From an uncultured Verrucomicrobiota bacterium (GTDB lineage: Bacteria > Verrucomicrobiota > Kiritimatiellia > CAIQIC01 > Lenti-01), in assembly GCA_938003985.1 (NCBI GenBank), contig CALKWZ010000031.1:4173-68172 (forward strand): a DNA stretch of 64,000 nucleotides, read 5' to 3'. Shown in pieces: positions 1 to 6,000 of this stretch (positions are counted from its first letter, which is position 1; every line of letters starts with the position of its first letter). Made by a program: the position numbers.

Positions 1-3000
1 GCCGCCGGCCGCCGCCGAACGGCCGGGCCGCGGGTGCGCCGACGCCGGGCGCCTTCCTGCGCGACCGGGCCGTGTGGAGCTTCTTCGTCTTCATCTTCCT
101 GCCGGTGACCGCATGCGGCCTGTTCCTGGGCTTCCTGTTCCCGCTGTTCGCCGAAGAACAGGGCTGCTCGATCAACGAGATCAGCTTGGCGTTCATGCTG
201 TTCGGCGCCGCCAGCGTCTATCTGGGCCCGGCGCTGACCCGGCTGACCACGGCGCTGTTCGGCGCGCGCCGGGCCATGCCCGTCGGCGCGCTGACCATGA
301 CGGCCGCCCTGCTGCTGTTCGCCGCGTTCCAGTCGCTCGGCGCGGCGTACGCCACCATCATCCTCTTCGGCTTGACCGAAAGCCTGGTCTTCAACCAGGG
401 CATGTCCTACTACTCCTCGCTGCCGAGCGTCCGCCGCTTCGGGGCGGACAAGGCCATGGGCGTCTACAACGTTTTCGAGTCCGGCGGCGAAGCGCTGGGC
501 CCGATGGTCTTCGGGTTGGCCGCCAGCCTGAGCCTGGGCCTCGGCATCGCCGCCATCGCCGCCGCGCTCGGCGCCGGCGCCGCGATCTTCTGGGCGCTCG
601 GCCCGCGCAACGGAGGGACCCCGCCGTGAAGTGGCTGGCCTGGTATCGCCGGCAGCCCGTCCGGCGCAAGATCTTCATCCCCTTCTTCGCCATCACCCTG
701 CTCTCGTCCACGCTGTTCACGATCTACGGCTTCATCCAGAACGTGAAGGCCATCGAGAACGAGATCGACAAGCGGCTGCTGATCGCCGCGCTGACGATGC
801 CGCAGCTGCTGCCGGCGGACTATTTCGACCGGGTCCAGACCCCGGACAGCATCCCGGAACCGGAACACTGGGCCAACACGCGGCGGCTGGACACGTTCCT
901 GCGCAACGTCGGCGGCACCTACCTCTACGCGCTGAACCGGGTGAGCAACCGCTACTATTTCGTCGCTTCCGCCGCCACGGACACGGTGTACTGGGCGGAA
1001 TACACGAATCCGGCGCCCAACGTCTACGAAGTCCAGAAGACCTGGGAGCCGAACATCTCGACCACGCCCGATCCGGACTACGGCCTGCTGCGGTCCGTCG
1101 TCATGGGCCACAAGGATTCCGCCGGCCGGCGCTTCATCGTCGGCGCGGACATCCACGCCTACGAGGTCGAGGCCCTGAAGCGCCGCGCCTTCCTGAACTT
1201 TTTCATGATGGGCTTCGCCAGCTTCCTGCTGGCCGTCGTGTTCAGCTACGTCGCCAGCACCACCATCACGCAGCCGCTGACCCGCCTGTCGAACTTCACC
1301 CGCCGGCTCGTGGAGGGCGGGTTCTCCGCCGACATCCGCCTCGACGCCGGGCTGTTCCCCGACGGCAACCAAACCAAGGCCGAAACCGCCATCCTCGCCT
1401 ACGACTTCGACCGCATGCAGGCCAACCTGGCCGAGCACATCGATCAGCTCAAGCAAACCCAATCCGCCCGCGAGCGCGCCGAAAGCGAGCTGCGCATCGC
1501 CGGCCAGATCCAGGAAACCTTCCTGCCCGGCCCGTTCGCGCCGGCGGAGCTGGGCGGGCGCGTGCAGCTGCAGGCCGCCATGAAGACCGCCAAGCAGGCC
1601 GGCGGCGACCTGTTCGACTACTTCGCGCTCGACGACGCGCACCTGTTCTTCGCCATCGGCGACGTCTCCGGCAAGGGCATGCCGGCGGCCATGTTCATGT
1701 CGGCCGCCGTCGTGCTGCTGCGCTCCGCCGCCAAGCTCTGGCGCGATCCGGCCGAAATCCTGCGCCGCGTGAACGACGACCTCGCCCTCCGCAACGAAAG
1801 CTGCACGTTCGTGACGCTGTTCGCCGGCATCCTCGACGTCCGCACGGGCGAAGTCGTCTTCGCCAACGGCGGCCACAATCCCCCGCGCCTCCGCAACGCC
1901 GCCGGCGCGGTGGCCGCCGTGCCGACGAAGACCAACATGGTCGTGGGCGCCCTGGAGGGGCAGACCTACGCCCGCGAGACGCTCGCCCTGCGGCCCGGCG
2001 ACGTCCTGGTCCTCTACACGGACGGCGTCACCGAAGCGTTCAACGAGGCCGACCAGCTCTACGGCGAAGACCGCCTGGACCGCCGCCTCGGCGCGCTGCC
2101 GGCGGACGCCACCGCCGCGGAAATTCTCCGGAGCGTCGTCGCCGACGTCGCCGCCTTCGCCGGCGCGCGGGAACAGTCCGACGACATCACGATGCTCGTC
2201 CTGCGCTCGCTCCCGCCGGCGCAAATAACCACTTGATGGAACTTGAACCGATGCGGCAGGATGACGGACGCAGGCAATCCCCCAGAAAGGCGGACCAACA
2301 TGGAACTCACCGTTGACAAGCAAAACCAGGTCTCGATCGTGGCGGCCAGCGGCAAGCTGGACGCCGCCGGCGCGCCGACGCTCGAGGCGCGCTGCAAGGC
2401 GCTGATCCAGGAAGGCGCGAACCGCCTGCTGCTGGACTTCGCCAAGGTGGAGTACGTCAGCAGCGCCGGCCTGCGCAGCCTGCTCGTGCTCGCCAAGGCG
2501 GTGAAATCCGCCGGCGGCGGCCTCGCGCTGTGCGGCCTGGTCCCCGCCGTGCGCGACGTCATGACGATCTCCGGCTTCGACAACATCCTGCCGCTGGCCG
2601 CGGACCGCGCCGCCGCGCTCGACCTGCTGAAGTAGGTTCCCCGGATCCGGCCCATGCTCGAATGGTCCATGGCCAACGACTCCGCCGATCTGGCGCGGGT
2701 GCTGGACGAGGTCGACGAACGCCTCGCGCCGCTGCCCGTCTCCCCCAAACGGAAGTACGCGGTCCGGCTCGCCCTGGACGAACTGCTGTCCAACGTCATC
2801 CGCTACGCCTACGACGACGCGGCGCGGCACCGAATCGACCTGAAGCTCGAGACGGGCGCGCCGTTCCACCTGACGATCGCGGACGACGGCAAGCCGTTCG
2901 ACCCCCTCGCCGACGCCCCCCCGCCCGTGCTCGACGGCCCCGTGGAGGACCGCCCCATCGGCGGCCTGGGCCTGCACATCCTGAAAAAGATGGGCCTCCA

Positions 3001-6000
3001 GCTCGCCTATCGCCGCGAAGCCGGCCGCAACGTCGTGCGCGTGGATTTCCCGGAGGAATAGCCGCCATGCCGTCCATGCTCTACATGAGCAGCCCCATCA
3101 ACGCCCTGCTGGAGGGTTTCTATCGCGACGACGTCACCATCGCCACGCTGCGGGAAAAGGGCGACTTCGGCATCGGCACGTTCAACAACCTCGACGGCGA
3201 ACTGATCGCGCTCGACGGGCGCTACTTCCAGCTCGATCTCGACGGCAACGCCCGCCCGGTCGGCGACGACCTGAAAACGCCCTTTTCCACCGTGTGCCGG
3301 TTCCAGCCGACGCTGGCCGAGGAAATCTCCGGGCCGCTTTCGTGGGAAGCTTTTTCGGCACAACTTAAGACCATTCTGCCGTCGGACAACATGTTCACGG
3401 CGCTCCACATGCAGGGCCGGTTCCGCTCGGTGCTGACGCGGTCCGTGCCCCGCACCGAAAACTACCGCCCGCTGTCCGAAGCAACGGACCACCAGAAGCT
3501 GCGCCGCTTCGAAAACGCGGAGGGCCATCTGGTCGGCTTCTACACGCCGGGCTTTGTGCCGTCCGTAAACGTACCCGGGTTCCATTTCCACTTCATCGAC
3601 AAGGATTTCTCCGCCGGCGGGCATCTGCTGAACTGCGAGCCGGAACATCTGGACGTCCGGCTGCAGGTGTTTTTCAGCATGGAACTCACCCTGCCCAAGA
3701 CCCTCGACTACCTGACCGCCTCCTTCACGCGCGACGCGAAGAAGGATCTCGAAAAGGCGGAGCGGTAAAACGGCTTCTGGATTCCCGGATTTGGAATCCT
3801 GTCCAATCCTGTTAATCCTGTCTAAGTGTCTTTTTAGGTCTTCGGCCGGCGCGCCGCGAGAACGACGGCCAGAGCCGCGTTCATGAGCCAGAGCGCTCCC
3901 AGATCGAAGCCATAGGTCCGGAACGTCCTTGTCCCGAGCCGTTTTTCCCCGGCCATGAACGGCGCGCGGCCCCACGGCGAATCGGCGGACTGATAGACGG
4001 GATCCGCCAGCCGGACGAGGCGTCCGCCCTGTTCGCGCAATGGATCCTTCAGGCCTTTGCGGCGGACTAGTTCAACGAGCTTCCGGTTGGTATTCGCTTT
4101 CACGAAGGCCGCCAGGCCTTCTTCCCCGCGGTCGGCGAGCAACGCTTCCTGGATCGCGTCGCGGCGGGCTTGCGCCGCTTGGCGCGCGGCCTGCAACTCG
4201 CGCGCTCCCTCGCGCAAGGTGGATTTCAGCGACTCCAGCGCCGCGCGATCCGGCGGCTGCCAATCCGCGACTACGGCCGCGGCGCCAGCCAGGCGCGGCA
4301 TTTCGCTTTCCAGCGCGCGGAATTCGCGGACCAGCAGCGCGCGGATTTCCTCGCGGCGCTCCGGCGCTGCGAGCACCAGCGCATCCAGCCGGCCGAGCAA
4401 CGCAGGCACGTGGTCGTTCACGCGATAATCCAGTCCGGACAATTCTCGGTCGGCCGCCTCGAAATGCCGCTGGTAGGCGTTGGCCCGGTATTGTTCGACC
4501 GCCAGCGCCTCGAAGGCCCAGCGCGAAGCCGTCAGTTCGCCGAACCACGGCGGACAGGCATGCGGCGCGGCGCGCGAGCGCAAATCGTCGAAGTCCACGA
4601 TGAGCCCGCCCAGCAGCATCTGGGGCAGCAGCAGCAACGGCAGGAGGACGTAGACCGTGACGGCGGATTTGAACCGCGCCGAGACGTTCAGGCCCAGAAT
4701 GCCGCCGAAGACCGCCGCCGAGAAAAGCGCGAGCCACAACTTGCCGAAGAAATCCGGCACGCGCAGGCCGACGACGCCGATCGCGGCGCAAATCGCGGTC
4801 TGCAGCAAGGCCAGCCCGGCGACGTGCAGGATCTTCGCGCCGGAATAGGCGCTCCAGCTCAGGTGCAGGAACTGCTCGCGCCGCAGCACGCGGCGGTCGC
4901 GCACGATTTCCTCGGCGCTGACGCTCAGTCCCAGGAAAATCGCCACGATCACGGCCATGAAGAAATAGACGGCCAGATACGGATTGCCGCCGAGGACGTA
5001 GGCCCCGCCGGTCGCGCCGCGGCACAGCCAGACCGTGAGGCCGGCGAGCAGCGGCGGCTCCAGCAGGTTCACCCACACGTAGGCCCGGCTGGCGAGACGC
5101 GCGCGCGCCGTGCGCGACAGGAAAACGCGAAGCTGCCCGAGCCAGCCGGGACGGTTCAGGTGGCGCGGCGGCGGTTCGTTGGCCGGAGCGCCGGCCGCAG
5201 CCGGAGCCGGAGCGCTCTTGCGCCAGGCCTCGTGCCAGAATTCCGGCGGGAACTGCCGCGCGCGGGTGAACCGGCCGTCGGCATCGGTCGCCTTGGACTC
5301 GATGAGCGCGAAAATCTGCTCGGGATGGACGTTTCCGCATTCGGGACAGGCGCCGCGTTCGCCGCCGGCCAGATGCGCGGCTTCGCGGAAATGCCGCGCG
5401 GCTTCCAGCGGATGCCCCATGTAGACGGGTACCCCGCCCTTGTCCAGGATCCACAGCGCGTCGAACTGCCGGAACAGGTTGGACGACGGCTGGTGCACGA
5501 TGGCGATCACGAGCCGCCCGCGCGCGGCCTGCGCCTTGAGCAGGCCCATCACGACGTCGGAATCGGCGGAGGACAGGCCCGACGTGGGCTCGTCCACGAA
5601 CAGGACGGATGGTTCGCGGATCAATTCCAGCGCGATGTTCAGCCGTTTGCGCTGGCCGCCGCTGATGGTTTTCGACAGCGGGTCGCCCACCTTCAGGTCG
5701 GCGATTTCCTCCTGCTGGAGTTCGGCCAGCATCCGGCGGACGCGCTCGCCGCGTTCGGCGACCGACAGTCCGGCCAGGCACAGCCGGGCGTTGTAGTCGA
5801 GGTTCTCCCGGACGGTCAGGTCCTCGAACAGCAGGTCGTCCTGCGGCACGGTGCCGACGACGCCTTCGAGCGCGGCGGGATTCCGGTGCAGGTCGATGCC
5901 GTTGAGGAGCACGCGGCCCGACTGGGGTTTCAGGCTGCCGTTGAGCAATTGGACCAGCGTGGATTTGCCCACGCCGCTGCCGCCCATCACGGCGACGAGC

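Follow-up and report, generated by a model that had tools for sequence, protein, structure and literature searches.

A partner-switching gene module without a dedicated sigma factor adjoins an alpha-acetolactate decarboxylase gene in an uncultured Kiritimatiellia bacterium

We analyzed a 64,000-nucleotide stretch of DNA, hereafter the window (contig CALKWZ010000031.1, positions 4,173 to 68,172; G+C ∼68%), from an uncultured bacterium of the Verrucomicrobiota (Kiritimatiellia). We observed that the genes of a membrane phosphatase of the PP2C/SpoIIE family, a single-domain STAS protein (STAS1) and an RsbW-like kinase are followed there directly by alsD, the gene of alpha-acetolactate decarboxylase (ALDC). 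We tentatively read this locus, with somewhat less than even confidence in the reading as a whole, as a partner-switching module of the RsbU/RsbV/RsbW type that lacks a sigma factor of its own and has a functional link to AlsD. As judged from gene neighbourhoods, the functional link itself is likely, because alsD stays adjacent to the module while the gene order, the orientation of the neighbours and the adjacent switch gene change among relatives (loci L168, L172, L173 and L174, described below). That AlsD would be controlled directly and post-translationally is possible rather than probable; this part of the reading comes from the gene context and from the precedent of the SiaABCD system. 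Partner switching is usually described as freeing a sigma factor, and the known switches that do not act on a sigma factor mostly have unidentified targets or control the synthesis of cyclic di-GMP. All the parts of this locus are from families already described; the novelty lies in the conserved pairing with an enzyme of central metabolism, the building of the operon from two units and the coupling to a sensor-like protein of the MFS transporter family. If the reading is true, this would be, to our knowledge, the first case of partner switching that acts on an enzyme of central metabolism and not on a sigma factor or a second-messenger enzyme. Full-text searches for literature linking partner switching, RsbV/RsbW or anti-sigma factors of Kiritimatiellia with acetolactate decarboxylase found none.

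The open reading frames (ORFs) and their domain matches agree with the succession of phosphatase, STAS protein, RsbW-like kinase and alsD that a first-pass annotation had proposed for positions 626–3768, all on the + strand. The phosphatase gene (626–2236; 536 amino acids (aa), RsbU/SiaA type) runs from a GTG at 626 to a TGA ending at 2236. Reading the sequence directly, we found that its start codon overlaps the stop codon of the upstream transporter gene as GTGA (626–629), as that annotation had stated. It is followed by STAS1 (2300–2635; 111 aa, RsbV-like; ATG to TAG), by the gene of the kinase, a GHKL serine kinase (2654–3061; 135 aa; ATG to TAG), and by alsD (3067–3768; 233 aa; ATG to TAA). 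The gap between the phosphatase gene and STAS1 is 63 bp and not the 64 bp first given, while the gaps of 18 bp (STAS1–kinase) and 5 bp (kinase–alsD) were correct. A GGAGG sequence (3052–3056) lies within the 3′ end of the kinase gene, 10 nt ahead of the alsD ATG. The question, raised earlier, of a promoter or a terminator between the kinase gene and alsD was addressed by a consensus scan, in which this junction had neither a promoter-like nor a terminator-like site. In an RNA-fold check the junction RNAs folded no better than their shuffles and had no unusual structure, and an Rfam search of the whole window returned nothing except two tRNAs located elsewhere. The phosphatase, STAS1, kinase and alsD genes form an operon-like unit, and we infer from the 5-bp junction that alsD is co-transcribed with the kinase gene. 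Downstream, a 974-aa ABC-G-type transporter gene on the − strand converges on alsD from 3834. The spacer between the two (3769–3833) contains only small hairpins (z-scores −1.2 and −1.8) and is the probable end of the operon.

Next, we compared the neighbourhoods of alsD in related metagenome contigs and metagenome-assembled genomes (MAGs), where orthology of the module genes was assigned by BLAST; the locus counts given here describe a sample among the matches listed and not a census. We observed five arrangement types with alsD beside a switch gene, corresponding to four gene orders. The order phosphatase–STAS1–kinase–alsD is found in the window, L001/L002, L087 and L167 (alsD identity 82–97%), with a kinase–alsD junction of −4 to +18 bp: the two genes overlap by 4 bp in L001/L002, are 5 bp apart in the window and in L087, and are separated by 9–18 bp in L167. 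In L168 (alsD 81%), alsD comes first and is followed by STAS1 (56–59%), the kinase gene (69%) and a soluble PP2C. In L172 (alsD 78%), the ortholog (61%) of a second STAS gene of the window, STAS2, precedes alsD with a 60-bp gap. L173 (alsD 75%) has the order STAS1 (55%), STAS2 (46%), alsD, an NMT1 gene and the gene of a dCache-HAMP-PP2C-kinase fusion protein. Finally, in L174 a gene for a 117-aa STAS protein holds the same place directly upstream of alsD as STAS2 does elsewhere, separated from it by 23 bp and lying 6 kb from a STAS1–kinase pair; alsD is truncated on this contig and its identity was not scored. Among the five arrangement types, three have STAS2 as the immediate neighbour of alsD. 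A strong terminator stands ahead of STAS1 in L173, and the cluster itself contains only weak terminator-like matches at about the frequency seen in shuffles; alsD lies here inside the operon, ahead of the fusion gene. That gene (L173 7769–10144) encodes one 791-aa protein comprising dCache, HAMP, PP2C and RsbW-like kinase domains, of which the PP2C part is 38% and the C-terminal kinase part 50% identical to the corresponding window proteins. In a sixth type, L170, the genes on either side of alsD encode a phospholipase C and an ABC substrate-binding protein, and a kinase-GNAT fusion and a 418-aa STAS protein are encoded at most 4 kb from it. The outer flanking genes differ completely among the types, and the G+C content of the contigs ranges from 52 to 67%.

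In a neighbour-joining tree, from which the truncated alsD of L174 was left out, the module-linked alsD genes form one clade (75–97% identity). This clade includes L170/171, where only fusion-type relatives of the module occur within 4 kb of alsD. In the sister clade (71–75% identity; L089–L093 and L178), alsD is not accompanied by module genes, and none of its neighbours is conserved. We also counted the loci with at least 2 kb of flank that have a STAS, kinase or PP2C match within 3 kb of alsD: there were 7 among 14 loci at 70% identity or above, one of three at 50–70% and one of 52 at 30–50%. Most loci among the matches listed in the metagenome scan with alsD carried alsD genes of 36–48% identity and no module genes, and none of the 80 listed loci with a generic sensor-PP2C carried alsD. 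We had also scanned a genome collection with the phosphatase alignment for orthologs and rejected this approach, as the conserved PP2C peptides were too generic; the matches listed were 28–45% identical phosphatases of other phyla, with no orthologs, and serve as negative background only. Three distant loci have STAS and kinase genes 0.25–3.4 kb from alsD on the opposite strand (L095, L100 and L159, the first two with a PP2C as well), and we treated these associations as near-background. In L095 (5399–8292), the alsD gene (53%), which falls outside the linked clade, is 250 bp from a divergent STAS-kinase-PP2C operon; this association may be an independent second origin or due to chance.

The distribution described above bears on whether alsD is linked to the module functionally or by descent alone. 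A small stand-alone alsD gene might have come to lie by the module in an ancestral genome and simply been inherited with it since. The confinement of the linked alsD genes to a single clade, the want of conserved neighbours around alsD in the sister clade, and the G+C content at third codon positions (GC3), which is 0.85 in alsD and 0.92–0.96 in the three regulatory genes, are all consistent with this explanation. However, passive inheritance would preserve the gene order and not the partnership, whereas the flanks are wholly different in the five arrangement types and alsD stands beside the kinase gene, STAS1 or STAS2, on contigs of 52–67% G+C and with kinase identities down to 50%. We therefore consider the absence of any functional link improbable.

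We then asked whether AlsD has the properties of an active enzyme. It matches AAL_decarboxy (PF03306; E 3e-70) and scores 212.2 bits with the TIGR01252 equivalog model (cut-off 180.65). It aligns end to end with the solved ALDCs 6j3d, 5xne and 4bt2 (E ∼1e-49), and the motifs PGxHxHF...GGH, DGE and TR line up with those of the solved enzymes. Residues E45, R125, H173, H175 and H186 are invariant in 23 homologs and were aligned with 6j3d; going by the structure of the B. brevis ALDC, we take H173, H175 and H186 to be the zinc-binding histidines, and E45 and R125 to be the catalytic Glu and Arg. From these matches, AlsD is probably catalytically competent. Between the window and L001, AlsD is 89% identical and its neighbours are 69–84% identical, therefore the constraint on AlsD is at least as strong as that on its neighbours. 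Searching 1.84 billion representative proteins with a profile from the alsD alignment, we also recovered one fusion protein (P0373) in which a SulP transporter is followed by a STAS domain and then by an AlsD-like domain; a second member came from another assembly (P0509). The three zinc-binding histidines are lost in this AlsD-like part (PGLQLSFL...GGR), which is probably a pseudo-enzyme domain attached to STAS. These proteins show that the AlsD fold can be physically joined to a STAS domain, and we give them little weight.

Could AlsD be an input to the switch instead of its output? As a moonlighting sensor, it would bind acetolactate or branched-chain amino acids and report to the STAS proteins or the kinase. 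The histidine-less domain behind STAS in P0373 and P0509 shows that the fold is able to act non-catalytically next to STAS, ABC transporters for amino acids are found repeatedly in the neighbourhoods, and, in the passage of PMC5504149 that cites Goupil-Feuillerat 1997, the ALDC of L. lactis is bound and allosterically activated by branched-chain amino acids. On the other hand, the catalytic residues are all invariant in the clade and AlsD has a full TIGR01252 equivalog score, while the system already contains a membrane phosphatase dedicated to sensing, as well as a sensor-MFS protein. A sensory role of AlsD is thus very unlikely, and we continue with AlsD as the candidate output.

The GC3-supported ORFs of the whole 64-kb window were scanned against Pfam, and among them we found neither a sigma70-family gene nor a gene for acetolactate synthase (alsS/budB) or for any other enzyme dependent on thiamine pyrophosphate. 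The sole DNA-binding regulator seen in the window is a LuxR-type response regulator (55769–56488). Genes for a sigma factor or for acetolactate synthase were also not found in the 5.4 kb upstream of the phosphatase gene on L087, a contig 92–97% identical to the window, or in the upstream flanks of L001, L167 and L176; the flanks of L168 and L173 had no sigma factor gene either, and none of the conserved neighbourhoods inspected contained a sigma factor or a transcription factor. The earlier statement that no sigma factor is nearby is thus upheld for the scanned ORFs and for the flanks of close relatives. It had also been reasoned that the link to alsD would fall if orthologous modules never adjoined this gene and a sigB-type gene lay just upstream; orthologous modules do adjoin alsD in L001/L002, L087 and L167, and no sigB-type gene was found upstream in close relatives. 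In B. subtilis, the RsbW and SpoIIAB operons encode the sigma factor directly after the kinase. The RsbU-RsbV-RsbW-SigB and SpoIIE-SpoIIAA-SpoIIAB-SigF systems share their three protein families and their phospho-serine logic with the window module, whereas in the latter alsD holds the place of the sigma gene after the kinase gene and the scanned ORFs include no sigma factor. AlsD is likewise of the same enzyme family, with intact catalytic residues, as the products of alsSD/budABC and of L. lactis aldB. In contrast to alsSD/budABC, acetolactate synthase, acetoin reductase and an AlsR/BudR-type regulator were not found in the window and the neighbours of alsD are signalling proteins; alsS/budB was also not found beside alsD in any related locus inspected.

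STAS1 matches Pfam STAS (E 4e-19) and TIGR00377 (77.8 bits; cut-off 53.45), and its nearest solved relatives are SpoIIAA and RsbV. Its motif with the phosphorylatable serine, YVSSAGL (S54/S55), nearly matches the chlamydial RsbV motif Y[MIL]SSAG[IVML] (PMC11619594), and orthologs of 55–90% identity are present in L087, L001, L167, L168, L169 and L173. The kinase matches Pfam HATPase_c_2 (E 1.3e-21) and has weak matches to the RsbW/SpoIIAB models of NCBIfam, far below the equivalog cut-offs. The N-box DELLSN (42), the G1 box DDGKPF (77) and the G2 box GGLGL (103) are present, and its orthologs are 64–97% identical. The first-pass annotation had a single STAS protein in the module. STAS1 is correctly placed there, and the paralog STAS2 (9553–9915, + strand; 120 aa; Pfam STAS E 4.8e-17) had been missed. 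STAS2 lies 5.8 kb downstream, after the ABC-G gene, a gene for a 273-aa protein of unknown function and a gene for a 570-aa protein of the metallo-beta-lactamase (MBL) fold; we found no other copies of the module genes elsewhere in the window. It carries the motif FISSMGI and is 31–34% identical to STAS1. Apart from its positions upstream of alsD in L172 and L173, a STAS2 ortholog (64%) is found directly upstream of STAS1–kinase in L169. These placements argue that STAS2 belongs to the same system as STAS1 and the kinase. The MBL-fold gene directly before STAS2 (7769–9481) encodes a C-terminal region of ∼330 aa that has no Pfam match. The pair of this gene and STAS2 also occurs in L001, and L167 is without the MBL gene.

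The phosphatase matches Pfam SpoIIE at residues 336–527 (E 1.8e-50) and has two hydrophobic segments (∼15–37 and 187–215), which give two transmembrane (TM) segments. Its layout is TM1, a periplasmic alpha/beta domain, TM2, a HAMP-like helical hairpin, a coiled coil and the PP2C domain. An AlphaFold (AF2) model built from 27 homologs has a mean pLDDT (predicted local distance difference test) of 87, with values above 90 for the periplasmic domain (66–177); it shows a long TM1 helix, a TM2/helix segment at 178–230, a loop at 231–252 and a helix at 253–299, and then the PP2C fold. The best structural matches to the PP2C part are P. aeruginosa RssB, SiaA-PP2C (TM-score 0.84–0.86, normalised to the target), SpoIIE and Rv1364c. 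Within this domain D328, D346, D466, D519 and D520, which we take to be metal ligands, are invariant in the 27 homologs. Foldseek with the full model returned PP2C matches only and none for the periplasmic domain, and we found no sequence similarity of the sensor domain to any solved structure. The protein had been described as a membrane-bound HAMP sensor. Its membrane location with two TM segments stands, whereas no Pfam HAMP match was obtained even at E ≤ 1; Pfam Cache did not match either. Residues 190–301 have weak NCBIfam histidine-kinase matches, and Pfam HAMP (PF00672) is present in phosphatase homologs of 35–37% identity. The HAMP label is a structural reading of the predicted helical hairpin and not a profile match. 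Identity of the phosphatase orthologs descends from 94% to 58% and then drops to 39%. Relatives of the module proteins that bear a name come from MAGs under the labels Kiritimatiellia, Opitutae and Verrucomicrobia, and on this ground we assign the source to the Planctomycetes-Verrucomicrobia-Chlamydiae (PVC) superphylum, probably to Kiritimatiellia.

The gene that overlaps the phosphatase gene (1–629, + strand; Pfam MFS_1, E 6.8e-10) is the 3′ end of a gene for a multidomain MFS protein of ∼988 aa, whose start precedes the window. Its product is 96% identical to the end of a 988-aa ORF of L087 (2455–5421). This full-length relative has a signal/TM segment, an extracytoplasmic region of ∼315 aa, two TM segments, a Cache-like region of ∼165 aa (a weak sCache_3 match), one further TM segment and the MFS core (600–976). 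The succession of a GNAT acetyltransferase gene, the ∼988-aa MFS gene and the PP2C gene is conserved in L001, L003, L005, L087, L167 and L176; the stop codon of the MFS gene overlaps the start of the PP2C gene, and the GNAT gene always precedes the MFS gene. The MFS protein looks like a transporter-sensor paired with the phosphatase, and an extracytoplasmic signal may arrive through this multidomain protein, which is translationally coupled to the phosphatase.

The STAS1–kinase pair is not bound to this phosphatase, as its orthologs occur with a different, soluble PP2C in L168 and L169. Judging from these neighbourhoods, the triad is composite, with GNAT/MFS/PP2C as one conserved unit and STAS1–kinase as a separate, mobile unit. 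The three proteins of the "complete triad" described in the first-pass annotation are all present, and the loci L003, L005, L168 and L169 indicate that the triad is a juxtaposition of two units.

Several observations weigh against the reading of the module as tied to AlsD. The orthologous GNAT-MFS-PP2C units of L003 (71%) and L005 (63%) have no STAS, kinase or alsD gene beside them. In L169, which has the order STAS2-STAS1-kinase-PP2C, no alsD lies nearer than 7 kb, and L176 has patatin, CDF and phospholipase C genes after the kinase gene in place of alsD; alsD is not an obligatory neighbour of the module. The neighbourhoods carry other recurrent cargo, namely GNAT, the kinase-GNAT fusion, patatin, CDF, Zn phospholipase C and ABC transporters, and alsD may be one of several co-regulated genes. 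As the linked genes come from one clade, the association with alsD represents a single origin followed by retention. AlsD has no extra domain, and the only clade-specific fixed differences between the module-linked clade and the unlinked sister clade are S74 and V76. Ser74 (window ∼3286–3288) and Val76 lie in TPFSTVC and are Ala or Val in the sister clade; a role of Ser74 as a phospho-site or an interface residue is speculative. We had considered clade-specific residues of AlsD as an argument for an interface and dropped it, since these two residues were too few. The P0373/P0509 fusions, having a dead enzyme domain on a transporter-type STAS, offer only a loose analogy.

These points suit the main rival, an explanation by co-expression only, in which the module acts on a target encoded elsewhere (such as the housekeeping or another sigma factor, a transporter or an acetyltransferase). 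In this case alsD would be one among several cargo genes of stress or overflow metabolism, sharing the transcript or the island of the module but left untouched by its proteins. The modules without an adjacent alsD (L169 and L176), the recurrence of the other cargo, and the AlsD protein with no added domain and almost no clade-specific residues all speak for it, as does the precedent of Chlamydiota, in which an Rsb set that looks sigma-less targets sigma66 encoded elsewhere (PMC11619594). However, four gene orders place alsD directly beside an ortholog of the kinase or of a STAS protein, and in L173 it is inside the operon. Its adjacency is also tighter than membership of the island would demand, whereas the other cargo has no such direct adjacency. 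Weighing both sides, we regard co-expression only as a real possibility, though on the doubtful side.

Coming back to AlsD as the target of the switch, we infer its protein–protein steps and its physiological role as follows. The RsbW-like kinase would phosphorylate the conserved serine of STAS1, and probably also that of STAS2. The membrane PP2C would remove the STAS phosphate, probably in answer to an extracytoplasmic or transport-linked cue, given its periplasmic alpha/beta domain and its translational coupling to the sensor-MFS protein. The dephosphorylated STAS protein would then change partners, and AlsD would be the enzyme output, gated either by binding of dephospho-STAS, most likely STAS2, or by the kinase through sequestration or phosphorylation. 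In this way, the organism would set the share of alpha-acetolactate that is drained to acetoin and CO2 and the share left for valine and leucine synthesis. This specific scheme, in which dephospho-STAS2 or the kinase binds or phosphorylates AlsD and thereby gates acetoin against valine/leucine formation, with the sensor-MFS/PP2C pair as a transport-coupled input, is offered as a tentative model that we would not call probable.

ALDC is a plausible target of such a switch, because it competes with valine and leucine synthesis for acetolactate and because enzymes of this family respond to branched-chain amino acids (L. lactis) and to Ser/Thr-kinase phosphorylation (B. subtilis). In the latter organism, AlsD is a phosphorylation substrate of the Ser/Thr kinase PrkC (PMC6213207). 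Non-canonical proteins consisting of STAS only are also described to act on non-sigma targets (PMC8256260).

The closest precedent for the proposed logic is SiaABCD of P. aeruginosa, in which an enzyme shares its transcript with the membrane PP2C, the kinase and the phospho-protein that regulate it and becomes active when the phospho-protein, in its unphosphorylated form, binds to it directly (PMC7647112, PMC8457831, PMC7278518). Both loci have PP2C, kinase and phospho-protein genes beside an enzyme gene and no sigma factor, although for the window this likeness is one of gene arrangement only. The output of SiaABCD is a diguanylate cyclase and not a metabolic decarboxylase, and phosphorylation there takes place on Thr68 of SiaC. 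With the SiaA equivalog model (NCBIfam NF038263; cut-off 700), the window phosphatase reaches 44.9 bits and is not an ortholog, and the window system differs further by its two STAS paralogs and the upstream sensor-MFS protein. By this analogy, the resemblance would lie in architecture and logic only. A gene for a GGDEF diguanylate cyclase in the window (13833–15227) was considered as a SiaD-like output and rejected, as it is not conserved in the related neighbourhoods. This gene is 4 kb from STAS2, and the N-terminal region of its product (∼300 aa) has no Pfam match.

The Rsb system of Chlamydia, which belongs to the same PVC superphylum, consists of two RsbV proteins (RsbV1 and RsbV2), a single RsbW and a membrane-bound RsbU that senses metabolites through a periplasmic domain; it has no SigB-type sigma factor, and one RsbV paralog is suspected of having a separate target (PMC11619594). 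The window system resembles it in having a membrane RsbU-type phosphatase, one kinase, two STAS paralogs and no SigB-type sigma factor among the scanned ORFs. In Chlamydia, by contrast, the genes are scattered over the genome and sigma66 is the target that has been proposed, with no involvement of alsD. In the part of the same article that deals with the Synechocystis icfG cluster (Slr1856, Slr1859, IcfG and Slr1861), the cluster is described as having a PP2C, a kinase, two STAS proteins and a carbon-metabolism phenotype, with no sigma factor in the cluster. By this description it is like the window system, whereas no enzyme target encoded in the cluster is given there (PMC11619594).

The candidate target of the window module is encoded within the operon and is a small, easily assayed enzyme with solved homologs; therefore, the hypothesis is directly testable with four or five recombinant proteins. 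If it is true, phospho-serine partner switching would extend to the direct control of carbon flux, at the pyruvate/acetolactate node of anaerobic PVC bacteria, and the puzzling chlamydial systems with two RsbV proteins could be approached through this locus as a tractable model. Should co-expression be all that is involved, the locus still represents a conserved and shuffled island of signalling and metabolism in uncultured Kiritimatiellia-like bacteria.

Some additional features were observed in the related neighbourhoods and in the window. A block of genes for a patatin-like phospholipase, a CDF cation-efflux protein and a Zn-dependent phospholipase C occurs together with STAS, kinase and alsD genes in L170 (1594–5909), L174 (9270–13603) and L176 (7430–10231); in L170 and L174 it is directly preceded by the gene of a 505-aa HATPase_c_2::GNAT fusion. 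Proteins of 406–419 aa with an N-terminal STAS domain are encoded within ABC transporter operons (ABC_sub_bind, BPD_transp_2 and ABC_tran) in L169 (57–1316), L170 (10523–11779) and L172 (8998–10218), and these operons adjoin alsD or the module. The presence of STAS proteins inside ABC transporter operons suggests a STAS-based control of the transporter. Elsewhere in the window are the genes of an ankyrin-repeat protein (15428–16030), an AddAB-like helicase-nuclease pair with PD-(D/E)XK and UvrD domains (16823–22848) and two tandem NERD-domain genes (61779–63357).

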